From the NCBI GenBank assembly GCA_964565125.1, contig CAZMCX010000003.1, positions 3,957 to 18,652 of the forward strand: 14,696 nucleotides of DNA. The letters run 5' to 3'. The notes under the pieces were generated by a model. It searched no databases. It saw nothing but the letters and a program-made list of their open reading frames with translations, and was not told the origin of the DNA. This stretch comes from an uncultured archaeon (GTDB taxonomy: Archaea > Iainarchaeota > Iainarchaeia > Iainarchaeales > 0-14-0-20-30-16). Below are positions 1-14,671 of this stretch, one piece after another; the first letter of the stretch is position 1; each line of letters starts with the position of its first letter. A program made the position numbers and the translations under genes.

Positions 1-63
1 TTGCGCGAAAGCGGAAAAGGGTTGTCTTAAGTCCTGCCCGTTTGACCACTTCGGTACCCCCAC
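1..63 (-). tRNA. tRNA-Leu(UAA), 5' portion only (positions 1-37 at 63..26), followed by non-tRNA sequence (25..1: intron or trailer); truncated by the window edge
   Basis: The minus strand from 63 reads GTGGGGG-TA-CCGA-AGTGGTCAA-ACGG-G-CAGGA-CTTAAGA. This gives a 7-nt acceptor strand, U8, A14, G18G19, a 3-bp class-II-like D stem, G26, anticodon-stem strand CAGGA, and loop C32 U33 UAA G37 A38 (anticodon at 29..27). The expected 3' anticodon-stem strand (TCCTG) is absent. Instead CAACCCTTTTCCGCTTTCGCGCAA follows, which contains a small CGC-UUUC-GCG hairpin. The region is GC-rich compared with its surroundings. Confidence 0.55.
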
Positions 64-73
64 CGTGATTTTT

Positions 74-79
74 AAAAAA
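74..79 (-). terminator. Oligo-T tract (T6 on the minus strand) after the structured non-coding segment and before the tRNA; candidate archaeal oligo-T terminator
   Basis: Plus-strand aaaaaa at 74-79 equals TTTTTT on the transcribed strand. Archaeal termination commonly uses oligo-T. No experimental support. Confidence 0.25.
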
Positions 80-80
80 T

Positions 81-184
81 CCTAGGTAAAACAAAACTTT
101 TGCTTTAGCAAAATGACCATATCCCATAGAGGATATTCCGCCCTACTGGCTGGCCTAGGTTCCCTATTTGCTTTTCGCAAATAG
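81..184 (-). ncRNA. GC-enriched, multi-hairpin non-coding segment downstream of rpoD (unclassified structured RNA or processing/termination element); strand assumed from operon orientation
   Basis: There is no ORF. Perfect hairpins: 164-171/177-184 (ctatttgc/gcaaatag, 5-nt loop, 3 nt after the rpoD stop), 119-124/131-136 (atatcc/ggatat) and 98-103/108-113 (ttttgc/gcaaaa). The self-complementary cctagg at 81-86 and 154-159 could close an ~80-nt domain. By eye, GC content is clearly above the coding background. Confidence 0.3.
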
Positions 185-187
185 CCA

Positions 188-892
188 TTATTTCAGTTTT
201 GCTGAAATCTTTTTAAAATATTCTTTCAAGTATTCATCAACATCAATAAAGATGTCTTCTAAATCCTTGTTTTTGAATAATTCTAAATATAAATAAAATA
301 TATCTTCTGATAATTTTACCTTAAATCCTGCTTGCTCTAAGCAATATTTACAAAAATCATATGATGCAGTTTCAGAAATAACTAATTTATTTCCGTCCTT
401 TTTTAGTTGTCCTTCTGCAACTAATTTTTCTATCTCTTTAGGAAGTTTTTCTTTTGTTTGTGTTTCTGCGAATTCTCTATAATAAACTAATGCTGGCTGG
501 AATTTAACATGCTCTTTTCCAGTTCCTTTTCCCATTTTAAGCTCAATTTCTACTTCACAATCTTTTTTTAATTTAACCAAAGGTATGTTTTTATATAGAA
601 CATCAACATCATTTGACTGAATGTCATTACTATAAACCATTCCACCTTTTTTCTTAATATATCCTTTAGATACATCAGATATTTCTCCTTTTATTGGAAC
701 TAATCCAATTCTATTTGCTAAAAATTCATCCGGCATTACACTTTCATTTTTATAGTATATTACCTCATCTACTGCCATTGTAAGAACTTCAGTCATTATT
801 GCTCTTCTTAAAAAATTCATAAAGGTGTAGTCTACATCCTTTAGAAGAAAACAATACTTTCCTTTTTCCTTATCCGCATTAATTAATTCCAT
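188..892 (-). CDS. rpoD: DNA-directed RNA polymerase subunit D (Rpo3/RpoD)
   Basis: The protein MELINADKEKGKYCFLLKDVDYTFMNFLRRAIMTEVLTMAVDEVIYYKNESVMPDEFLANRIGLVPIKG matches the conserved RpoD/Rpb3 N-terminal dimerisation motif (ANalRR...AI..V.i..N.S...DE.lahRlGLiP). The position after S13-S4-S11 is canonical. The start is ambiguous: ATG at 892 (MELIN), or ATG at 904 / GTG at 907 as in the ORF track. Confidence 0.9.
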   Translation of the reverse strand: MELINADKEKGKYCFLLKDVDYTFMNFLRRAIMTEVLTMAVDEVIYYKNESVMPDEFLANRIGLVPIKGEISDVSKGYIKKKGGMVYSNDIQSNDVDVLYKNIPLVKLKKDCEVEIELKMGKGTGKEHVKFQPALVYYREFAETQTKEKLPKEIEKLVAEGQLKKDGNKLVISETASYDFCKYCLEQAGFKVKLSEDIFYLYLELFKNKDLEDIFIDVDEYLKEYFKKISAKLK

Positions 893-3678: not shown

Positions 3679-4122
3679 TTATCCAAACACTTTTCTTTTT
3701 TCTAATAAATTAAATACTACACTATAATAAATCCCTGAAACTATTGCAACTAATATATACCACACTAATGCTGGGCTTAACCCCAAAAATTTTCCTACTG
3801 GAAATTCAGCGTGCAAGAAATATATCTGCACAATAAACAAAATTATTATTCCAATAATAAACAGATATATCATATTTGACATATTTCCCTTCATCATTGA
3901 CATAGACAACTCCATTATCTCTTTTTGAAGTTTATCTGTTTTTTCTTTTGCTTTGGGGTTTGTTGCAGAACTTTTCAAAAGTTCTTTCATTTCTTTTTGT
4001 TTCTCTTTAACCTCTTTCTGTTTTTCTTTTATACCATATTTTTTTTCTGATCTTTTTTTCAGATAAAAACTAATTGCTGAAACCAATAATCCCAATGTCC
4101 CTACAATAAAAACTGCCCACAT
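3679..4122 (-). CDS. DUF106-family membrane protein (archaeal YidC/Oxa1/EMC3-like insertase homologue)
   Basis: Three predicted TM helices are present (WAVFIVGTLGLLVSAISFYL; IYLFIIGIIILFIVQIYFL; LVWYILVAIVSGIYYSVVFNLL), with a K/E-rich coiled-coil between TM1 and TM2. It occupies the conserved position just downstream of secY in archaea. ATG at 4122 follows GGTGAT. Confidence 0.6.
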   Translation of the reverse strand: MWAVFIVGTLGLLVSAISFYLKKRSEKKYGIKEKQKEVKEKQKEMKELLKSSATNPKAKEKTDKLQKEIMELSMSMMKGNMSNMIYLFIIGIIILFIVQIYFLHAEFPVGKFLGLSPALVWYILVAIVSGIYYSVVFNLLEKRKVFG

Positions 4123-4127
4123 CAATA

Positions 4128-5525
4128 TCACCGAGCCATAAACTTCCCTAACATTGGAAGCAACTGAGGTGCTTGTTCTCTTACTAGTTCCTCATACATT
4201 CTATATAAAATATCAACTGTTAACAGTATTCCCATTCCAGTTCCTACTGCACCAGTAATGTCCGCAAATCCGGCCATAAGCCCAACAAATATCGATCCTA
4301 AGATCGTAATTGTCGGAATATACCTATCCAAAACACCTTTTACTACTCTTGGGTCTCTTCTAAATCCGGGCAAATACATTCCACTTTTATTTAACTGATT
4401 AGCTAAAGAGCCTGAATCCTGACCAGCCATCTGAACCCAAAGTACTCCAAACAAAACACATGCCGCAGTTAATACAACTATGTACAACAAAGCATATCCT
4501 ATACTAGACAGAATATAACCCCATTCTGAACCCCCACCAATTACTTGGTTGAGGACATCGAGGACTACACTTCTTGTTGGGTTAACGACTTTATCAATAA
4601 ATGAAAATATTACTGAAAATACCCCTGTTCCTTTCGCAATCCATTGTGCAAGTAAGTGTATATTTGCAAACAAAGCAGCAGCCAATATTACAGGCATATT
4701 GCTCACATAGAAGAACTTTACTGGATATTTACCCATCGCCCCTCTTTGCCCAACTGTCAAAGGAATATTTACATGAACTCCTTCAAAGTAAACAACTATG
4801 AAAAATATTACCAATGCAAACATTATTGGCAGGAGATTGTTCACAAAACTTAACAAAAACCCACTTGTTCCCATGTTATGGAAAAATGACCATAACAAAC
4901 CATCTGCAGATGCAAAGTTAATTGTTGCGTGGCCTATAGACAAACCTGCACCATAGGTAAATGGATTAAATATTCTAATTAATATTGTGCTTGCAACACC
5001 GCCCGCAATAAATAAAGAAATTCCAGAACCAAATCCATAATTCTTTACAACTTCATCTAAATATAATAATATTATTGATCCAATTGCTACCTGCAATAAA
5101 ACCAAAAAAAACCTTCCTGATTCTGGAGCCAAAAGCCCCATTTTTACATAAATAAATGCTTCAAAGAAAGATAAGATAATTGCTAATAACTTTTGCCAAC
5201 TGCTAAATCTTGCTCTTTGAGCTGGATCTGAGAAGTCCATATTTATTATTTTACTTCCAACTAGTAACTGCAGTATAATGGATGCTACAACTATTGGGCC
5301 TATACCAACACTAATTATTGTTCCTATTTTACTTGCCAATAAATATTGGATATGTTCTAAACCTATTTGGGCTGATGAACTCAATCCGTAGATTGGAATC
5401 ATACCCAAAACAAAGAACACAACTAAGATTAATAGTGTCCATTTAAGCTTAGATGTTAAAGATGGCTTTTCTTTTGGAGCTATTACTTCAGGAATAACCC
5501 TAAAAACATTATCCATTATACTCAT
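4128..5525 (-). CDS. secY: Preprotein translocase subunit SecY
   Basis: 465 aa and polytopic (about 10 TM segments). Its position after L15 is canonical. The ATG overlaps the L15 stop (ATGA at 5522-5525). Confidence 0.95.
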   Translation of the reverse strand: MSIMDNVFRVIPEVIAPKEKPSLTSKLKWTLLILVVFFVLGMIPIYGLSSSAQIGLEHIQYLLASKIGTIISVGIGPIVVASIILQLLVGSKIINMDFSDPAQRARFSSWQKLLAIILSFFEAFIYVKMGLLAPESGRFFLVLLQVAIGSIILLYLDEVVKNYGFGSGISLFIAGGVASTILIRIFNPFTYGAGLSIGHATINFASADGLLWSFFHNMGTSGFLLSFVNNLLPIMFALVIFFIVVYFEGVHVNIPLTVGQRGAMGKYPVKFFYVSNMPVILAAALFANIHLLAQWIAKGTGVFSVIFSFIDKVVNPTRSVVLDVLNQVIGGGSEWGYILSSIGYALLYIVVLTAACVLFGVLWVQMAGQDSGSLANQLNKSGMYLPGFRRDPRVVKGVLDRYIPTITILGSIFVGLMAGFADITGAVGTGMGILLTVDILYRMYEELVREQAPQLLPMLGKFMAR

Positions 5526-8105: not shown

Positions 8106-8648
8106 CTAATTCAGCATCTTTATGCCTTTCTTTTCTGCTTCCTTTCTAATAAACTCTTTCTTTTTCTTTCCTACAGTAGAACTTATCCTTGCTGCGTGTG
8201 TTTCTTTCTGTACTTTATCTAAATCTTTAACATTACATACTTTTGTTTCTCTATATCCCGATGGATGTAGACCTCTTATTTCTTCAGGGTTCTTGTAACC
8301 ACCTTTTACTCTACAGCCATCTCCTTTTCTCCATTTAATATCTATTCCTCTAGGAACTCTCCACTTGTTAAATTTATCTTTAGCTTTGCTTCGGATCTGT
8401 CTTATTCCAAATCTTCCTCTAAAAGTTGGGTGTTTCTTTTTCTTTGCAATTAATTTCTTTAATCTTGCAATTATGCTTGTGGGGGCCACTCTTTTCTTTT
8501 CTTTTTTATTTTGTTTTGCTTTGGCTTTTGGTTTACTAGTAGCTTTGTCAGCAATTTTTTCTGTTTTTTCCGTTGCTTTGATTGGTGCTGGCTCTACTTT
8601 TTGTGCCACTGCTTTCTTAACTGCACTTGTTTTTTTAATATCATTCAT
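8106..8648 (-). CDS. rpl32e: 50S ribosomal protein L32e (eL32) with a ~55-aa Lys-rich N-terminal extension carrying repeat copy R1
   Basis: The core is HPTFRGRFGIRQIRSKAKDKFNKWRVPRGIDIKWRKGDGCRVKGGYKNPEEIRGLHPSGY. ATG at 8648 is preceded by GGTG; the track start at 8666 is TTG. Confidence 0.9.
   Translation of the reverse strand: MNDIKKTSAVKKAVAQKVEPAPIKATEKTEKIADKATSKPKAKAKQNKKEKKRVAPTSIIARLKKLIAKKKKHPTFRGRFGIRQIRSKAKDKFNKWRVPRGIDIKWRKGDGCRVKGGYKNPEEIRGLHPSGYRETKVCNVKDLDKVQKETHAARISSTVGKKKKEFIRKEAEKKGIKMLN
8534..8603 (-). repeat. Repeat copy R1 (in frame in the eL32 N-terminal extension; encodes KVEPAPIKATEKTEKIADKATSK)
   Basis: By hand alignment, 8534-8594 matches 10250-10310 at 51/61 positions, including an identical 20-mer gctttgattggtgctggctc. 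Confidence 0.85.
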
Positions 8649-9171
8649 TTTGAACACCTTTTTCAACTATATAAATTCCATCTTGGAAAATTCTTCTATC
8701 CTTAGATCTTACTTTTGCTTTTCCTTCAATATTAGCAGCCACCTGACCTGCAGCATTCTTGTCTACAGAAGTTATGAAAATATCTTTTCCTTTAATTTCA
8801 ACCTTTACATTATCTACAACCTTAATTTTTATTTGCTTCTTTTGACCTGCAAAGTTAGATATTATAAATACATTGTCCTTTACTAAAACACTTAATGGGA
8901 AGTGAGAATACACTATACTCATCTTGTAGGTATATGGTTTACAAACTCCCGACATCATGTTCTTAATATTCTTGGATAAAGTCATCATTTGGGCTCTAGC
9001 TGGTTTTTTTTCGTTTTTTGTTTTAAGGATTATGTCTTTCCCCTTCAATTCTACATCAACCAATCTAATGGGATTCTTTTTTGACACACTACCCTTAGGC
9101 CCTTTAACAACGAAGTTTTTGCCTTCGTATTTTACTTCAACGTTATCCGGAACTTTAATATTTGATTCCAT
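8641..9171 (-). CDS. rpl6: 50S ribosomal protein L6 (uL6)
   Basis: Typical two-domain uL6 (IKVPDNVEVKYEGKNFVVKGPKGSVS..., ...QVAANIEGKAKVRSKDRRIFQDGIYI). ATG at 9171 follows GGTGA; the track start at 9180 is the SD GTG. Confidence 0.93.
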   Translation of the reverse strand: MESNIKVPDNVEVKYEGKNFVVKGPKGSVSKKNPIRLVDVELKGKDIILKTKNEKKPARAQMMTLSKNIKNMMSGVCKPYTYKMSIVYSHFPLSVLVKDNVFIISNFAGQKKQIKIKVVDNVKVEIKGKDIFITSVDKNAAGQVAANIEGKAKVRSKDRRIFQDGIYIVEKGVQNE

Positions 9172-9182
9172 TTTATTCACCT

Positions 9183-9572
9183 TTAATATACATATGCCAT
9201 TAATTTTCCGCCAATTCCTTGTTTTTTGGCTTCTCTATGAGCCATTATTCCTTTAGGAGTTGAAACTACTAAATAACCTATATTCTTAGATGGAAGATAT
9301 CTTTTCTCAAATCTTTCATAATCACTAACCTGAACAGAATATCTTGGCTTTATTGCCTTACACTCAGTTATTGCGCCTTTAAGTTTAACTTCAAGGATTC
9401 CTCCCCTTGGATTCTCCTTAACATCAAACCCCTCAATATAATTCAGGTCTCTCAAAAGACTACATGTTGCCAATATCAACTTACTTGCTGGCGTTATGCT
9501 ACAGCTTCTTTTAGCAACAAATTCTGAATTTTTAATTATTATCATTGCATCTGAAAATACATCTACACTCAT
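9183..9572 (-). CDS. rps8: 30S ribosomal protein S8 (uS8)
   Basis: DVFSDAMIIIKNSEFVAKRSCSITPASKLILATCSLLRDLNYIEGF...GGKLMAYVY matches uS8. GGTG lies 5 nt upstream of the ATG. Confidence 0.95.
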   Translation of the reverse strand: MSVDVFSDAMIIIKNSEFVAKRSCSITPASKLILATCSLLRDLNYIEGFDVKENPRGGILEVKLKGAITECKAIKPRYSVQVSDYERFEKRYLPSKNIGYLVVSTPKGIMAHREAKKQGIGGKLMAYVY

Positions 9573-9582
9573 ATGAACACCT

Positions 9583-9717
9583 TTAGTTATATTTTTTAAA
9601 TCCCAAATTTATTGCATTGTTCTTGAAACATCTTCTACAAATATAAAGATTATATTTTTTTACTAGGCCTCTATTTGTACTACAGATCTTACAAACAACT
9701 TTTTTCTTATCTGTCAT
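9583..9717 (-). CDS. rps14: 30S ribosomal protein S14 (uS14, zinc-ribbon type), 44 aa; not in the supplied ORF track
   Basis: My hand translation of the minus strand gives MTDKKKVVCKICSTNRGLVKKYNLYICRRCFKNNAINLGFKKYN*. It has CxxC...CxxC plus the LGF.KY C-terminus typical of archaeal S14. ATG at 9717 overlaps the L5 stop (ATGA). It fills the expected L5-S14-S8 slot. Confidence 0.9.
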   Translation of the reverse strand: MTDKKKVVCKICSTNRGLVKKYNLYICRRCFKNNAINLGFKKYN

Positions 9718-10490
9718 ATTACATCAACCCCGAAGGTCTTGTTTACATATGTAACCGCATCTTCTTTTGTAACCTTATGTGCGTTTCCAACACTTTTTCT
9801 GTAAAGTAATCTATTCTTTACTCTATATCCTCTTCTTTTTAAATTTACTATTACATCAAATCCAAGTAATCCTAATTTGGGGTCATACTTCATTCCGTGT
9901 ATGTCAATATATTCCTTTACCCCTAAAGCAAAGTTTCCATTTTTATCAAAGCTTTTTGATTTTATTTGGTTTTTATATGCTTTGAAAACTCTTGTCAAGA
10001 TTTCTTTTGCCTTCTTGCCTCTTAAAGTAACCTTGGTTCCAATAGGCAGGCCTGGTTTTATACCCCACTTTGGCAATCTTGTTTTTGCCTTAGTTTCAAC
10101 AGGCTTCATTTCAGTTAATCTTACTAAAATTTCTTTAGCATTTTGCAGTTTTCCCGCATTATCCCCAACACACATATGCAAAACTACTTTATCTAATTGT
10201 AATTCCCTCATTGTGTTGTTTGGATTTTTCACCTTTTTCACAGTTGCCTTGCTAGTAGCCTTGTCAGCAACCTTATCCTGCTTTTCCTTTGCTTTGATTG
10301 GTGCTGGCTCTTTCTTAGGCTCTACCTTTGTCTCTGCTTTGCCTTGGTTTACTTTGTCTTCGTTCTTAGCTTCCGGTTTAGCTTCTACTTTTACAGACTC
10401 TTTTTTGGCTTCTACTTTTGGTTTAACCTCTACTTTTGACACTGGTTTTTGCTCAACTACCTTGCTTTCTTTTGCTTGCTCTTTAGACAT
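9714..10490 (-). CDS. rpl5: 50S ribosomal protein L5 (uL5) with a 93-aa Lys/Glu/Val-rich N-terminal extension carrying repeat copy R2
   Basis: The core starts at residue 94 (MRELQLDKVVLHMCVGDNAGKLQNAKEIL...GLLGFDV). The upstream 279 nt stay open in an AT-rich context. ATG at 10490 has an SD-like GTGAT upstream. The internal ATG at 10211 has no SD at normal spacing. Confidence 0.9.
   Translation of the reverse strand: MSKEQAKESKVVEQKPVSKVEVKPKVEAKKESVKVEAKPEAKNEDKVNQGKAETKVEPKKEPAPIKAKEKQDKVADKATSKATVKKVKNPNNTMRELQLDKVVLHMCVGDNAGKLQNAKEILVRLTEMKPVETKAKTRLPKWGIKPGLPIGTKVTLRGKKAKEILTRVFKAYKNQIKSKSFDKNGNFALGVKEYIDIHGMKYDPKLGLLGFDVIVNLKRRGYRVKNRLLYRKSVGNAHKVTKEDAVTYVNKTFGVDVI
10250..10330 (-). 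repeat. Repeat copy R2 (in frame in the uL5 N-terminal extension; encodes KVEPKKEPAPIKAKEKQDKVADKATSKA)
   Basis: By hand alignment, 10250-10310 matches 14089-14149 at 52/61 positions, including an identical 22-mer tgctagtagccttgtcagcaac. Similarity continues about 20 nt further (tttcttaggctctaccttt vs ttttttagcttctactttt). Confidence 0.85.
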
Positions 10491-10520
10491 TTTATCACAC
10501 TCTTTTACACACCATAAATA

Positions 10521-11237
10521 TCATTGTACTAAATAATCAAAGTCATCAGGTAACAAAAATACATAATCCAACAAACTTCGTACTTCTTTTTTCTTTGTTT
10601 TAACAACAATTTCTCCTTTCTTTACTTCGTCCCCCAAAACTATTGATTTAACATTACCCACATTTCCAATGTGTGTTCCTTCTATAAATATTACTCTAAC
10701 GCCTTCACTAAACTCATAGTGGTCTTTTATTTTCTTTGCTTTAAAATCATAAGTTACAACATCATTTACTTTGTACTTACCTTTATCTATATTTATATTA
10801 TACCCGTTGTCCAAAAATAATAATTTCTTTCCGCCTTTTGCGGTTTTCTTTCCAACAATTTTGCTTAATCTTAAATCTGGTTTTTTATAATCTATTTCTA
10901 TAATATCCATTTTCTTATTCTTATGTGGAACAAAAGTATACTTTCTTTTTGTATCTTCTATATCTATAACATCAAACAATCCAACAGGAAATTTGTAATC
11001 TTTTATTCTTACACCATTTACTAAAACTGTTTTTGTCTGCAAAACTTTTTTTACTTCTCTTAAGTCATTTGCAACTTTCAAAATGTTCCTCAAAACAACA
11101 GCCATAGACACACTTTTCTTTTCTGCTTTTGTGCCGGGGGCAGTTTTTACTAAAAAGATATGATCTTTTTTCAGAACATGCTTTGGTCCAGAATAACTTA
11201 TTCTTTTTTGAGTTGAACTTCCGCCTTTATTTGCCAT
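10521..11237 (-). CDS. rps4e: 30S ribosomal protein S4e (eS4)
   Basis: GPKHVLKKDHIFLVKTAPG...VLVNGVRIKDYKFPVGLFDVIDI shows the eS4 S4/KOW architecture. ATG at 11237 follows GGTGA, 1 nt after the L24 stop. Confidence 0.93.
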   Translation of the reverse strand: MANKGGSSTQKRISYSGPKHVLKKDHIFLVKTAPGTKAEKKSVSMAVVLRNILKVANDLREVKKVLQTKTVLVNGVRIKDYKFPVGLFDVIDIEDTKRKYTFVPHKNKKMDIIEIDYKKPDLRLSKIVGKKTAKGGKKLLFLDNGYNINIDKGKYKVNDVVTYDFKAKKIKDHYEFSEGVRVIFIEGTHIGNVGNVKSIVLGDEVKKGEIVVKTKKKEVRSLLDYVFLLPDDFDYLVQ

Positions 11238-11238
11238 T

Positions 11239-11718
11239 TTATTCACCTTTCTTAACAACTTTCTTTACTACTTTTGTAGATGCTTTTGTAGGAGCCAAAG
11301 TCTTTGACTCTTTTTTTGTATCTACTTTCTTTGGAGTTTCTTTTTTTTCTAATTTCATTTTCTGTACTTTTTTTTCTCTTTTAAGTTTTGCTAATCTTAT
11401 ATTATCATTCAAGCTAAGTTCTTTTATTATCAAATTTGAAGGCTGGAATTTTACGTAAATTTCCTTCCCATCAACTTTTTTTATCTTTAAATTATCAATA
11501 TTAACATAACTATCTGCAACACTTGCTTTTACAATCTTGCCTTCTTTGCCTTTATATTTTCCAACCATTACTTTTACAATATCATCTTTTCTTACTTGCA
11601 GGGCCCTCATCTTATATTTATCTCTCAGTTCTTTTGACAAGTGAACTCTTAATTCCTTTTGCTTTTTATGTAAAGGAGCATTCAACTTTCTTTTTCTTTC
11701 GATATCTGATTTTACCAT
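11239..11718 (-). CDS. rpl24: 50S ribosomal protein L24 (uL24) with a ~45-aa Lys-rich C-terminal tail
   Basis: The KOW core is VRKDDIVKVMVGKYKGKEGKIVKA. The tail ...EKKETPKKVDTKKESKTLAPTKASTKVVKKVVKKGE shares KKVDTK and KKES with the uL22 tail. Confidence 0.93.
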   Translation of the reverse strand: MVKSDIERKRKLNAPLHKKQKELRVHLSKELRDKYKMRALQVRKDDIVKVMVGKYKGKEGKIVKASVADSYVNIDNLKIKKVDGKEIYVKFQPSNLIIKELSLNDNIRLAKLKREKKVQKMKLEKKETPKKVDTKKESKTLAPTKASTKVVKKVVKKGE

Positions 11719-11734
11719 TATATCACCTTAAATA

Positions 11735-12133
11735 TTATACAATCATAGACGCTTTTCCTGCAATCTTAGGCCATCTTTCTCCAATTTCTTTGGGAACCGC
11801 GCCTTTGATTTCTGTTCCTTTGGGAACCCCATCTTTATCTACTAATACAACTGCATTGTCTACAAACTTTAATTTTAATCCATTTGCTCTTGTTAATCCA
11901 CTTTTTGTTCTTATTACAATGGCCATAAATATTTTCTTTCTTAATTCCGGCTTACCTTTAGAAACAACTATATTTATCATATCCCCGATTCCTGCTTTTG
12001 GTATTCTTCTTTTTCTTGTTTTTAAGTTGAATACACTTATTAAATACACTTCTTTTGCACCCGTATTATCAGCACAAGTCATATGAGTTTTTAGTGCCAC
12101 TGCTCTTTGTGGTGTTGCGGACATTGCTCTCAT
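11735..12133 (-). CDS. rpl14: 50S ribosomal protein L14 (uL14)
   Basis: CADNTGAKEVYLISV...IGDMINIVVSKG...VVLVDKDG.PKGTEIKGAVPKE is the uL14 signature. The ATG overlaps the S17 stop (ATGA). Confidence 0.95.
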   Translation of the reverse strand: MRAMSATPQRAVALKTHMTCADNTGAKEVYLISVFNLKTRKRRIPKAGIGDMINIVVSKGKPELRKKIFMAIVIRTKSGLTRANGLKLKFVDNAVVLVDKDGVPKGTEIKGAVPKEIGERWPKIAGKASMIV

Positions 12134-12399
12134 TCTGAATCACCTTTAACTTTAGACACAATTATGAAGTTCTTTGTCTTACTAATTTTTCTTGTTTCAC
12201 CAATTCTCACAATGTCCCCGACTTCTACTTTTATTTCATCAGGAATGTGCACTACAATTCTTGATTTCACTTTCTTATATCTTTCATATTTCTTGACAAA
12301 GTGCACAATTTCTCTTTCAACAACAGCAGTTTTTGCACTTTTCATTTTAGTTATTTTTCCAACCAAAAATGAACCCCTCGGGATATATTTTGTTTCCAT
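12130..12399 (-). CDS. rps17: 30S ribosomal protein S17 (uS17)
   Basis: GKITKMKSAKTAVVEREIVHFVKKYERYKKVKSRIVVHIPDEIKVEVGDIVRIGETRKISKTK is the uS17 OB fold. GGAGG SD lies upstream. Confidence 0.93.
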   Translation of the reverse strand: METKYIPRGSFLVGKITKMKSAKTAVVEREIVHFVKKYERYKKVKSRIVVHIPDEIKVEVGDIVRIGETRKISKTKNFIIVSKVKGDSE

Positions 12400-12400
12400 T

Positions 12401-12664
12401 TTAAGTCCTCCAACATAATTTTATTCTTTCTTCAGGCCTGTAATTTATTTTGTCTCCATTGACTAAATATTCTTCTTTTCCATTTCTAAATTTAAACATC
12501 TTCCCTTTCTTAGGGATGGTCTTCAAACCATCTTTACATTCAACAACAAAAACATTTTTCGTTTCGTTGTAAACCGTTCCTTTAATTCCTCTTTGGGAAT
12601 CATCACTTGATTCCACTATTTCTACATCCAATCCTAAATATTCCATTATTTCTTTTTTTCCCAT
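12401..12664 (-). CDS. rnp1: RNase P protein component 1 (Rpp29/Pop4 homologue)
   Basis: YLGLDVEIVESSDDSQRGIKGTVYNETKNVFVVE...NYRPEERIK matches the archaeal Rpp29 pattern (liGl.v.vv.S.....G..G.vvdETkNtl.i ... rPedRik). The slot between SUI1 and S17 is conserved. ATG at 12664 is preceded by GGGG; the track start at 12712 is a TTG without an SD. Confidence 0.85.
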   Translation of the reverse strand: MGKKEIMEYLGLDVEIVESSDDSQRGIKGTVYNETKNVFVVECKDGLKTIPKKGKMFKFRNGKEEYLVNGDKINYRPEERIKLCWRT

Positions 12665-12738
12665 GTCTTTCCCCTGTATATAGGTGCCAAACCTTTGTAC
12701 ATTCGCCACCAAAGTGTGTTTTGTCTTTTCTTTGAACC

Positions 12739-13035
12739 TTAACTTTTAATATTCTTGGGAGAAAATCCTTTTTTTATCAAGAAAGCCCTTGCTTTCCTTG
12801 TATGTCTTCCTTGTAACTCGATTATATTATCTTTTGCTGTTCCGCCACAAGCTAATTCTTTCTTTAAATCTTTTGCCATTGATTCTACTTCTTTAGGATC
12901 AATACCACTTATATCAGTCACCATTTTGAATTTTTTCTTAAATTCTCTTATTGTTATCTCTTCTTGTTCTGCCATTATCTTTTTACAAACACAAAGTTCT
13001 TTTGGCAAACCACATACCGCACATAAAACGCTCAT
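12739..13035 (-). CDS. sui1: Translation initiation factor aSUI1/aIF1
   Basis: It has the N-terminal Cys knuckle CAVCGLPKELCVC and the SUI1 domain (KKELACGGTAKDNIIELQGRH). Synteny is L29-SUI1-Rpp29. The start is either ATG 13035 or TTG 13044. Confidence 0.88.
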   Translation of the reverse strand: MSVLCAVCGLPKELCVCKKIMAEQEEITIREFKKKFKMVTDISGIDPKEVESMAKDLKKELACGGTAKDNIIELQGRHTRKARAFLIKKGFSPKNIKS

Positions 13036-13050
13036 TATGTCCAAACTCCT

Positions 13051-13272
13051 TTATTTTTTAATAATACTTTTTGCTAGTTCATCTCTTTTCTTCTGAGATA
13101 TAACTGTTAATATTCTTGCAATATTTCTTTTTACATTTCTTATCTGATTTTTCTTATCATCTTTTGTTCCGATCTTCAGCTTAACCCTTTCTTCCATTAA
13201 TTTTTCTTGTAATACATCAAGCTCCTTGTTAAGCTCTTCGTAACTCTTTTTCAGATAATCTTTTGCTTTCAT
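13051..13272 (-). CDS. rpl29: 50S ribosomal protein L29 (uL29)
   Basis: A 73-aa helical protein, ..SYEELNKELDVLQEKLMEERVKL...IRNVKRNIARILTV, which is the uL29 pattern. It sits between S3 and SUI1. Confidence 0.9.
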   Translation of the reverse strand: MKAKDYLKKSYEELNKELDVLQEKLMEERVKLKIGTKDDKKNQIRNVKRNIARILTVISQKKRDELAKSIIKK

Positions 13273-13282
13273 AAAAATCCCT

Positions 13283-13963
13283 CTACTTCTTCTGCTCTTT
13301 GTCTAAAGTTTCAACTTCTTTTTTCTCTTCTTCAGACATTACTGCATATAATTTACTTACCTTATTTAAAATTTCATCTTTACTAATTTTATCTGGGAAA
13401 ACAGTTCCCGGCGGAATCAACTTTAATGTAACTCCAATTGCTCCTGATCTTGTATATGCTGCGCCAGTTCCAACCTTTACTTTTGAAACTTGGTCTCCAG
13501 CTTTTTTCATATATCCAAATGGAACCCTGTATCTCTGCTTTCTTCCGCCTTTTGACATAAGTTTTCCTTTTATTAATAATTCAAATCCTTCTAAATTTGT
13601 AACAGTTAATTCTTTAACTGCTCTATATACAACAGATCTCCAAGAAAAATTTCTTTCTAAACCGTTTATAATACTGTTAACTATGTGTTGAGCATTATAT
13701 TCGGGGTTTTCTATAGGCTTAATTTCCAACACTGGGTTCTTTATTCCATATTTTGTTTCCAATGTTTGAGTTAATTTTTTAACATTCTTTCCACTATAAC
13801 CTATTGCCAAACCTGGCTTTGCAACAGTAAGTATTATTTTAGTAGCCATTGGTGTTTTTACAATTTCAACGCCGCTAAATCCCGCCTTACTAAGGTTCTT
13901 TCTAAAGAAATCCTCAATCTGTATTTTTCTATATGCTTGCCGTATAAAGTTTCTCTCGATCAT
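13283..13963 (-). CDS. rps3: 30S ribosomal protein S3 (uS3)
   Basis: A KH domain (AGFSGVEIVKTPMATKIILTVAKPGLAIGYSGKN) and the uS3 C-domain (ELLIKGKL...YRVPFGYMKKAGD) are present. ATG at 13963 follows GTGAT; the track start at 13972 is that GTG. Confidence 0.95.
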   Translation of the reverse strand: MIERNFIRQAYRKIQIEDFFRKNLSKAGFSGVEIVKTPMATKIILTVAKPGLAIGYSGKNVKKLTQTLETKYGIKNPVLEIKPIENPEYNAQHIVNSIINGLERNFSWRSVVYRAVKELTVTNLEGFELLIKGKLMSKGGRKQRYRVPFGYMKKAGDQVSKVKVGTGAAYTRSGAIGVTLKLIPPGTVFPDKISKDEILNKVSKLYAVMSEEEKKEVETLDKEQKK

Positions 13964-13990
13964 GATTATCACGCCATTAATTCAATATCA

Positions 13991-14671
13991 TTACCCTTTT
14001 CTAGCAGGTATTTTTGTATGAATTTTACTGCTTATCGGGGCCAAAGCAAATCTTGTTTTACTTGTAGGGGTCAAATCCTTTCCTGTTTTGCTAGTAGCCT
14101 TGTCAGCAACTTTATCTTGTTTTTCTTCTGTTTTAATTGGGGCTGACTCTTTTTTAGCTTCTACTTTTTCCTCTATTTTAGTATCTACCTTCTTATCCTC
14201 TTTCTTTTCTTCTTTCTTTGGTTTTAGTTTATGTCTTTGTCTTACTAAAACTTCCAAATGAACTGATTTAGTATATCTTAATCTTCTTCTTCCACCAGGC
14301 TGGATAGTCGGTCTTCTTACTCCTGGATTTGCAACTATACCCACAACTGCCAAATCTTCACTATCTAATCCTTTGTGCTCTGCATTACTTTTTGCTAAAG
14401 TCAAAGCTTTTTTGAAGAACTTTGCTGCTTTTACTGGGTATCTTCCACTCTTTACTTTTCCTTCCATACCTGCTCTGTGACCTACATCATCATTAAATCT
14501 TGGCAAAGGAACATATCTCTTCATTTCTATTACATCGTCAAGATAAGCCACAACTTTAGAGTATGGTTTTCCCTTAATATACATTCCCAACTCTGCTGAA
14601 AATTTCTGAGAGATTGGGCAGTTTAATAATAAAGCCCTTGCTTCATTTTCTTTTGCTTTAAAATATGCCAT
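13991..14671 (-). CDS. rpl22: 50S ribosomal protein L22 (uL22) with an ~80-aa C-terminal tail carrying repeat copy R3
   Basis: The core CPISQKFSAELGMYIKGKPYSKVVAYLDDVI...GRYPVKAAKFFKKALTLAKSNAEHKGLD...HLEVLV is archaeal uL22. The ORF then continues through KPKKEEKKEDKKVDTKIEEKVEAKKESAPIKTEEKQDKVADKATSKTGKDLTPTSKTRFALAPISSKIHTKIPARKG. Confidence 0.92.
   Translation of the reverse strand: MAYFKAKENEARALLLNCPISQKFSAELGMYIKGKPYSKVVAYLDDVIEMKRYVPLPRFNDDVGHRAGMEGKVKSGRYPVKAAKFFKKALTLAKSNAEHKGLDSEDLAVVGIVANPGVRRPTIQPGGRRRLRYTKSVHLEVLVRQRHKLKPKKEEKKEDKKVDTKIEEKVEAKKESAPIKTEEKQDKVADKATSKTGKDLTPTSKTRFALAPISSKIHTKIPARKG
14089..14170 (-). repeat. Repeat copy R3 (in frame in the uL22 C-terminal tail; encodes KVEAKKESAPIKTEEKQDKVADKATSKT)
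   Basis: See R2. It also shares gactctttttt..tctacttt with the uL24 tail at 11306-11329. Confidence 0.85.

Follow-up and report, generated by a model that had tools for sequence, protein, structure and literature searches.

The ribosomal stalk proteins uL10/P0 and P1/P2 carry the same short peptide on flexible termini, where it forms a multivalent docking site. This acidic-hydrophobic tail lies at the extreme C-terminus of proteins of one structure, in both archaea and eukaryotes, and binds translational GTPases. Another peptide carried by ribosomal proteins of both subunits is ubiquitin, whose fusions to eL40 and eS31 show concerted evolution that has been attributed to ectopic gene conversion (PMC10457151). 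In insects, Lys-rich H1-like extensions occur on Drosophila eL22 and uL23, as related in PMC1934995 (citing Koyama 1999), and on mosquito eS6 and uL23 (PMC548281); going by the title of Hernandez & Fallon 2007 (cited in PMC11764897), the mosquito extensions evolved independently. Lys-rich intrinsically disordered regions of the KKE/D type are present on several proteins of one class of ribonucleoprotein (RNP), the snoRNPs, with an electrostatic action (PMC11528048), and flexible terminal fragments have been discussed as a general ribosome 'coat' (10.64898/2026.06.18.733196). Here we analyze a 14,696-nucleotide (nt) stretch of the genome of an uncultured archaeon (assembly GCA_964565125.1, contig CAZMCX010000003.1, positions 3,957 to 18,652; hereafter the window), in which a short module, encoding 22-26 amino acids (aa), recurs in the terminal extensions of unrelated ribosomal proteins. 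This shared tail module is unusual, yet it is a variant of known phenomena.

The window is a densely packed archaeal ribosomal-protein gene cluster on the minus strand (GC ~32%), with its closest named relatives among 'Candidatus (I)ainarchaeum' and Diapherotrites metagenome-assembled genomes of the DPANN archaea. A repeat search returned one three-copy family, at 8533-8624, 10249-10340 and 14088-14179, all on the minus strand, and codon-exact alignment places these copies in frame in eL32, uL5 and uL22, which bears out the claim of a first, sequence-only reading that the extensions of these three genes share one DNA module. The codon-exact length is 66 nt in eL32 and 78 nt in uL5 and uL22, and the Pfam boundaries of the three proteins agree with that reading in placing every copy outside the conserved core:

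8106..8648, minus strand: eL32 gene, with start ATG at 8648 and AAGGTG before it; extension aa 1-~77, Pfam core aa 93-180
8532..8597, minus strand: module copy in the eL32 N-extension, aa 18-39, VEPAPIKATEKTEKIADKATSK; 4 codons fewer than the other copies
9714..10490, minus strand: uL5 gene, with a 93-aa N-extension at 10212-10490; Pfam core aa 92-236
10248..10325, minus strand: module copy in the uL5 N-extension, aa 56-81, VEPKKEPAPIKAKEKQDKVADKATSK
10326..10349, minus strand: NQGKAETK in uL5, the 5' half of a second shared sub-module, directly upstream of the main module
13991..14671, minus strand: uL22 gene; Pfam core aa 17-143, C-terminal tail aa ~148-226
14087..14164, minus strand: module copy in the uL22 C-terminal tail, aa 170-195, VEAKKESAPIKTEEKQDKVADKATSK
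14057..14086, minus strand: TGKDLTPTSK in uL22, directly after the module; an instance of K-x-L-[AT]-P-[TIK]-K, a tail motif seen across the clade

As a control, we shuffled the codon order within each extension 1000 times, keeping its Lys/Glu-codon composition. The Smith-Waterman scores of all three pairs lie above every one of the shuffles (z of 8.2 for eL32-uL5, 7.6 for eL32-uL22 and 15.9 for uL5-uL22), and exact matches between copies run to 23 nt, whereas the shuffles reach 17 nt at most; Lys-codon composition alone does not account for the match, as had been argued from the GC-containing blocks. Nine contigs, drawn from independent ENA, NCBI (GCA_002778895.1) and JGI assemblies, encode an identical uL5 protein; their DNA is 99.5-99.8% identical to the window, and the modules are present wherever the contigs extend that far. 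The recurrence of the same modules in at least nine independent assemblies excludes assembly chimerism, which the sequence-only reading had named as a possible refutation.

A further copy beyond the window came to light when JGI metagenome contigs were scanned for exact matches to a pattern from the module's 3' part. Of the eight stretches obtained, six belong to the ribosomal-protein tails treated in this study and the other two are unrelated chance matches. Three contigs (L013, L014 and L016) encode uS9 with a ~120-aa Lys-rich N-terminal extension that contains the module, and one of these, L016, overlaps window positions 1-850 at 100% identity:

L016 2089-2166, ~1.24-1.32 kb beyond window position 1, minus strand: module copy in uS9; also on L013 and L014

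This copy lies ~11.5 kb from the uL5 copy in the same orientation, and the two are identical at 78/78 nt over 26 codons, silent sites included. The identity forms a discrete, sharp-bordered ~80-nt tract, the flanks of which diverge at once, and the copies in general carry gene-specific flanks and gene-specific substitutions. Against the shared uS9/uL5 sequence, the uL22 copy is identical at 65/78 nt (9 synonymous and 4 non-synonymous differences) and the eL32 copy at 55/66 nt, the latter scoring 41.9 bits on the hidden Markov model (HMM) of the module. As uS9 is a small-subunit protein, the shared peptide is not specific to the 50S subunit.

For comparison with relatives, we label the window population W; the sister species GCA_028710695.1 (contigs L018/L020) S; a third species, represented by uS9 alone (L015/P0123), T; contigs L034 and L036 of JGI sample 3300013137 U; and contig L021, with its uS9 taken as protein P0126, V. 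In the genome-collection copy of V, the uS9 N-extension stretch is masked by a run of N (L021 14912-15013), and P0126 is used instead. Across 22 core genes, W and S differ at 8.8% of nucleotides (dS 0.40, dN 0.029), and the S cores are 93-97% identical in protein sequence to those of W. The alignment of orthologues, which the sequence-only reading had put forward as a check, came out divided: the module is present in S in uS9 (KVEAKKEPAPIKAKEKQDKVADKVTSK) and uL22 (KVDAKIETAPIKANEKQDKVADNATSK), and it is missing both from S uL5, which has ...HQGKAETKALTPSKATKSTSAKVVKN there, and from S eL32. T carries it in uS9. In the loci of more distant relatives that were compared, the module was not seen; uS9 homologs across the wider clade display hypervariable K/E/V/P-rich N-extensions of ~35-150 aa, with the specific module only in W, S and T. 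Given zero differences between the uS9 and uL5 copies, as against ~9% between orthologs, the uL5 copy would be a very recent paste from uS9. At its upstream junction, uL5 and uS9 of W both have AACCAAGGCAAAGCAGAG (NQGKAE), and at the downstream junction S uL5 already had AAGGCTACT (KAT), as at the 3' end of the module, so that the replaced uL5 segment was bracketed by short homologies; the 4-nt string AAGG stands at both borders of the tract. The more distant V has KALAPIKAAKRIAVKK in eL32 at the position of the W module, which hints that the eL32 copy may have been lost in S.

The stretch directly upstream of the uL5 module is a second shuffled sub-module, (E/N)(H/N)QGKAE(T/P)K(A/V)L(A/T)P(T/S)K, which is found in full in W uS9, S uL5 and T uS9 and by its 5' half only in W uL5, where the stretch encoding NQGKAETK matches that of ENQGKAEPK in uS9 at 24/27 nt. 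A comparable exchange is seen in a second lineage, in which the uL22 C-tail (L034) and uS9 N-extension (L036) of U have in common a different near-identical tract of ~65 nt (KKVVESKDKSN..KAEKKDLTP; z 17.4 against codon shuffles). Peptide identity is 25/32 between the same-genome paralogs uS9 and uL22 of W and 24/34 between the corresponding pair of U, taken to be of one genome, as against 16/31 between the uL22 orthologs and 10/24 between the uS9 orthologs of W and U; paralogs that are closer within a genome than orthologs are between lineages constitute the classical signature of concerted evolution. A possible case within the population is offered by the strain contig L010 (99.26% identical to the window), which has 26 mismatches, 7 of them concentrated in the 78 nt of the uL5 module (Poisson P ~3e-6), including five adjacent substitutions that all equal the bases of the uL22 copy. 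The 5' junction of this mosaic has only 2 nt in common with uL22, which makes a k-mer path switch unlikely there, and the mosaic is suggestive, and only suggestive, of a segregating conversion tract.

The extensions that host the module are of a common type. Across 18 tails from five protein families and six lineages, they comprise 26-41% Lys, 2-15% Glu (10-21% Asp+Glu) and 4-20% Val, with a net charge of +8 to +26. The AlphaFold model of uL5 has a core with pLDDT (predicted local distance difference test) >90 and residues 1-93 at pLDDT 52-70 without secondary structure, and the extension is accordingly predicted to be disordered. Solved archaeal and eukaryotic chains of uL5 (151-196 aa) and uS9 (125-172 aa) align to the cores alone, and such tails were not found in the Micrarchaeota, Methanofastidiosia or Halobacteria loci examined. 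Of the same 18 tails, 12 contain L[AT]P, which is found 13 times in all where shuffles lead one to expect 0.2; for [LPST][AT]P[TI]K, the count is 14, as against 0.1 expected. The core K-x-[LPS]-[AT]-P-[TI]-K recurs in most tails of the clade, for example in the following forms:

KVLAPTK: W uS9
KTLAPTK: W uL24
KDLTPTS: W uL22
KALTPSK: S uL5
KALAPTK: T uS9 and U uL24
KDLTPTK: U uL22, with KDLTPK in the U uS9 extension
KDLAPKK: V uL24
KALAPIK: V eL32
EPAPIK / ESAPIK: the module's own version

The extensions are evidently translated, to judge by their start sites, in-frame indels and substitution pattern. AGGTGA-type Shine-Dalgarno (SD) sequences precede the ATG by 5-8 nt in most window genes, including eL32 at 8648, and one stands before the second ATG of uS9 on L013; W, S, U and V have all kept the uL5 ATG with its SD-like GTGTGAT/GGGTGTGGT, including cases with an extension of no more than ~15 aa. 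Differences in extension length between W and S are whole codons in every case. The ratio of non-synonymous to synonymous differences (pN/pS) amounts to 0.04-0.09 for the cores; for those parts of the extensions that can be aligned, it is 0.20-0.48 (0.20 for uL5), with gaps between W and S at 13-39% of the codons. For the module itself, the selection test that had been proposed gives 0.07-0.26 among the uS9 and uL22 copies, with values of up to 0.52 when eL32 is one of the pair. Between the uS9 copies of W and S there are 7 synonymous and 2 non-synonymous differences, and there is no RNA structure signal in sense-strand folds of the module (z 0.0-0.3); as the differences between old copies are mostly silent, the constraint acts on the peptide rather than the RNA. 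By these substitution patterns, the module is under purifying selection at the peptide level, strongest on the short core K-x-[L/P/S]-[A/T]-P-[T/I]-K. An alternative uL5 start at the internal Met94, where AAGGTGA lies 17 nt upstream at the extension/core junction (10212-10240, minus strand), was rejected in view of the upstream ATG with GTGTGAT/GTGTGGT conserved in four species, the whole-codon indels and the pN/pS of 0.20. The 17-nt spacing, longer than the local 5-8 nt consensus, also renders a core-only uL5 isoform unlikely.

These comparisons show that discrete tracts, identical or nearly so, move from one extension-coding region to another among unrelated ribosomal-protein genes. We posit that they probably reflect ectopic gene conversion, through which disordered, Lys-rich extensions peculiar to this lineage trade segments while selection on the peptide preserves the core motif. 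Under this proposal, Lys-rich extensions would have grown, within one Iainarchaeia-like DPANN lineage, on the solvent-exposed termini of uS9, uL5, uL22, eL32, uL24 and other proteins of both subunits. The near-identical DNA would then stem from non-allelic (ectopic) gene conversion, or from template-switch copying, between extension-coding stretches, probably seeded by short repetitive homologies of Lys/Glu/Val codons; the host genes all lie in one orientation within ~15.5 kb of ribosomal-protein gene cluster. The module in uS9 and uL22 would predate the split of W and S, with the uL5 copy pasted very recently from uS9 in W and the eL32 copy representing either an older acquisition or one lost in S. 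As to function, one may speculate that the tails are H1-like arms on the ribosome surface, flexible and polycationic, with a non-specific electrostatic affinity for RNA, DNA or another anionic surface such as a membrane, and that the short motif might give them one common specific contact. Among the spreading mechanisms entertained by the sequence-only reading, gene conversion between tails is thus the one retained, in view of the 78/78-nt uS9-uL5 identity, the S uL5 without the tract and the U tract.

Several observations weigh against this proposal. Distances between the older copies in W, S and T are all much alike (81-90% nt identity, pS 0.26-0.57), and the 78-nt uS9 and uL22 copies of W and S do not cluster by genome, which points to conversion that is sporadic or episodic and not continuous. 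Paralogs within a genome are closer than orthologs for uS9/uL5 of W and in the comparison of W with U, and they are not for uS9 versus uL22 of W and S, the similarity of which could be explained by peptide-level selection alone. The motif counts span five protein families and are nevertheless not phylogenetically independent. L034 and L036 come from one metagenome and only presumably from a single genome, and the L010 mosaic lies <=80 nt from the contig end, the other end of that contig being mismatch-clustered as well.

The most serious alternative, which we regard as unlikely though by no means far-fetched, is that the module is a selected docking or recognition tag for one partner (for example, a chaperone of ribosome assembly, a modifying enzyme, the membrane or the nucleoid) and recombination merely spreads it. 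It gains from the peptide-level constraint (pN/pS 0.07-0.11 for W uS9 against S uS9 and against W uL22), the retention of the module in uS9 of three species and uL22 of two, and the strong enrichment of the short motif in five protein families and at least five lineages. It loses by the absence of the module from uL5 and eL32 of the very close sister S and from distant relatives, and by the hypervariability of the surrounding tails noted above. A profile search returned 0 matches at E<=1e-3 among 1.84 billion representative proteins, with the limits that the profile is short and the representatives may be tail-less. By general ribosome structure, the host termini would be situated on the head of the small subunit (uS9), the central protuberance (uL5) and the solvent side of the large subunit near the tunnel exit (uL22, uL24 and eL32). 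They would be far apart across both subunits, and too distant from each other for a single composite site. The specific form offered earlier, a docking tag of the 50S subunit, is at odds with the finding of a 30S host and the gaps in S and the distant relatives. We likewise hold it doubtful that module and core motif together make up a genuine short linear docking motif, multivalent on the flexible arms of both subunits in these ultra-small archaea and directed at one common partner, with conversion as the vehicle of selection; candidates for such a partner would again be the membrane, the nucleoid or a modifying enzyme, besides factors of assembly or chaperoning.

An element acting at the nucleic-acid level, be it a mobile in-frame mini-insertion or an mRNA motif or small-RNA target coordinating ribosomal-protein expression, would account for DNA that is identical in two genes, for AAGG at both borders of the uL5 tract and for copies that are all in ribosomal-protein operons. 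We judge it very improbable, since the window repeat search found no flanking inverted repeats, the hosts in the metagenome scan are all ribosomal proteins besides the two chance matches (a local HMM scan agrees), the predicted mRNA folds are at z 0.0-0.3 and the older copies differ mostly at silent sites. The mini-insertion part of the earlier interpretation is therefore set aside, there being no terminal repeats and, in these scans, no copies outside ribosomal-protein tails. A degenerate DNA pattern for D/E-K-V/I-ADKATSK had 0 matches in GTDB species genomes, which evidently do not include the genome of the window (the S copies are one codon off each), and viral contigs yielded 0 module matches. 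Chance or convergence, whereby low-complexity Lys/Glu/Ala-rich tails would come to look alike through composition and codon usage, draws on the similar composition of the tails and on the uL24 similarity, which does not exceed chance. As regards the four true copies, it is refuted by shuffles that never reach the observed scores (z 7.6-15.9), by the 78/78 nt of uS9/uL5 and by the U tract (z 17.4), and the odds that it explains the data are slight in the extreme. Slimmer still is the prospect of an assembly or binning artifact, with collapsed repeats or chimeric contigs, despite all sequences being metagenome-derived and one variant contig (L010) ending in the module: nine contigs with identical uL5, gene-specific flanks and substitutions, and the diverged uS9 and uL22 copies that S has of its own refute it as regards the existence of the copies.

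The earlier statement that there is no described equivalent was too strong in light of the insect H1-like extensions and the gene conversion of ubiquitin-eL40/eS31 (PMC10457151). Like the insect extensions, the archaeal ones are long, Lys-rich, lineage-specific and outside the core, and they affect several unrelated proteins of both subunits (PMC1934995, PMC548281, PMC11764897). Unlike the mosquito extensions, for which the title cited above indicates independent origins, they have identical DNA tracts in common, and unlike the insect extensions of Ala, Pro and Lys only, they are polyampholytic (10-21% Asp+Glu, 4-20% Val) and belong to a DPANN host. With respect to the S/TPxK motif of the K/A/P-rich C-terminal domain of H1, LTPTK, LTPKK and LTPSK fit TPxK; many instances have Ala there (LAPTK, PAPIK), and 10-21% of the residues are acidic. 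As with ubiquitin-eL40/eS31 (and polyubiquitin), one in-frame module occurs on large- and small-subunit proteins with signs of ectopic gene conversion. Ubiquitin, however, is folded, universally conserved in eukaryotes, N-terminal and cleaved off, whereas the archaeal module is a disordered peptide of 22-26 aa, found in few species at N- or C-termini with no sign of cleavage. It also differs from the stalk tail in being basic, internal to the N- or C-terminal tails and confined to few species. The snoRNP tails are those of eukaryotic nucleolar, non-ribosomal proteins, and they are not known to have identical DNA tracts in common. Recombining tail modules on archaeal ribosomal proteins were not found described in the literature covered, which is incomplete.

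Ribosomal proteins are normally taken to be the most vertically and independently evolving of genes, hence their use as phylogenomic anchors. In this clade, their terminal extensions would act as a shared recombining pool, in which a tract is carried unchanged from one essential gene into another, unrelated one of either subunit and tails turn over between species with cores >93% identical. The case shows how archaeal ribosomal-protein extensions can arise and spread, carries the warning that such tails should be trimmed from DPANN marker-gene alignments, and provides a concrete, testable candidate motif for the role of polycationic surface arms in as yet uncultured organisms.

The remaining Lys-rich tail in the window that bears on the module is that of uL24:

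11242..11382, minus strand: Lys-rich C-terminal tail of uL24; no module copy, motif KTLAPTK at 11284-11304

It had been put forward (11306-11329) as a possible fourth copy, a place that belongs instead to uS9. Against codon shuffles, its similarity is at chance level (z 0.9, -0.1 and 2.7), it scores 2.8 bits on the module HMM as against 42-59 bits for the true copies, and the uL24 tail of S is entirely different in sequence from that of W. The uL24 C-terminus (11239-11250, minus strand) is strain-polymorphic: the protein has 159 aa and ends ...KKVVKKGE* in the window, L001 and L003, and has 163 aa and ends ...KKGEQDGK* in L002 and L004, resembling the V ending ...KVSKDGK.

The gene order of the cluster is uL22, uS3, uL29, SUI1, Rpp29, uS17, uL14, uL24, eS4, uL5, uS14, uS8, uL6, eL32, eL19, uL18, uS5, uL30, uL15, SecY and onward. 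Further small repeats and tail features occur along it and in its surroundings. The uL5 extension has at 10395-10418 (minus strand) a partial upstream duplicate of the 5' end of the module, KVEAKKES, which matches the beginning of the uL22 copy at 23/24 nt and thus denotes a duplication internal to the tail. In uL22, the extreme C-terminus (13994-14056, minus strand), past the module and outside the core, is kept in W (SKTRFALAPISSKIHTKIPARKG) and S (SKTQFASASISKAHTKIPNRK) and missing in U. The neighbor of uS9, uL13, also has a short K-rich N-terminus (MVVKKEIKVKSKAVKPEPK). In uL14, there is an internal 22-nt direct repeat with units 30 nt apart (11785-11836, minus strand), and three positions at which L010 departs from the window, 11816, 11822 and 11828, fall in a single unit of the repeat, possibly a further short tract of conversion. 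A 44-aa zinc-ribbon uS14 gene at 9583-9717 (minus strand; MTDKKKVVCKICSTNRGLVKKYNLYICRRCFKNNAINLGFKKYN) has a 4-nt overlap with the uL5 stop; it falls below the 50-aa cut-off for open reading frames and is absent from the gene calls of most assemblies. Downstream of SecY, the gene for an EMC3/TMCO1-like (DUF106-type) membrane protein (3679-4131) encodes a K/E-rich loop with PKAKEKTDKLQKE, in which a 28-nt stretch (3928-3955, minus strand) is 86% identical to the eL32 module segment and gives a weak partial HMM match of 8 bits; this similarity may be due to chance in Lys-rich sequence or may represent a further fragment of the tail vocabulary.

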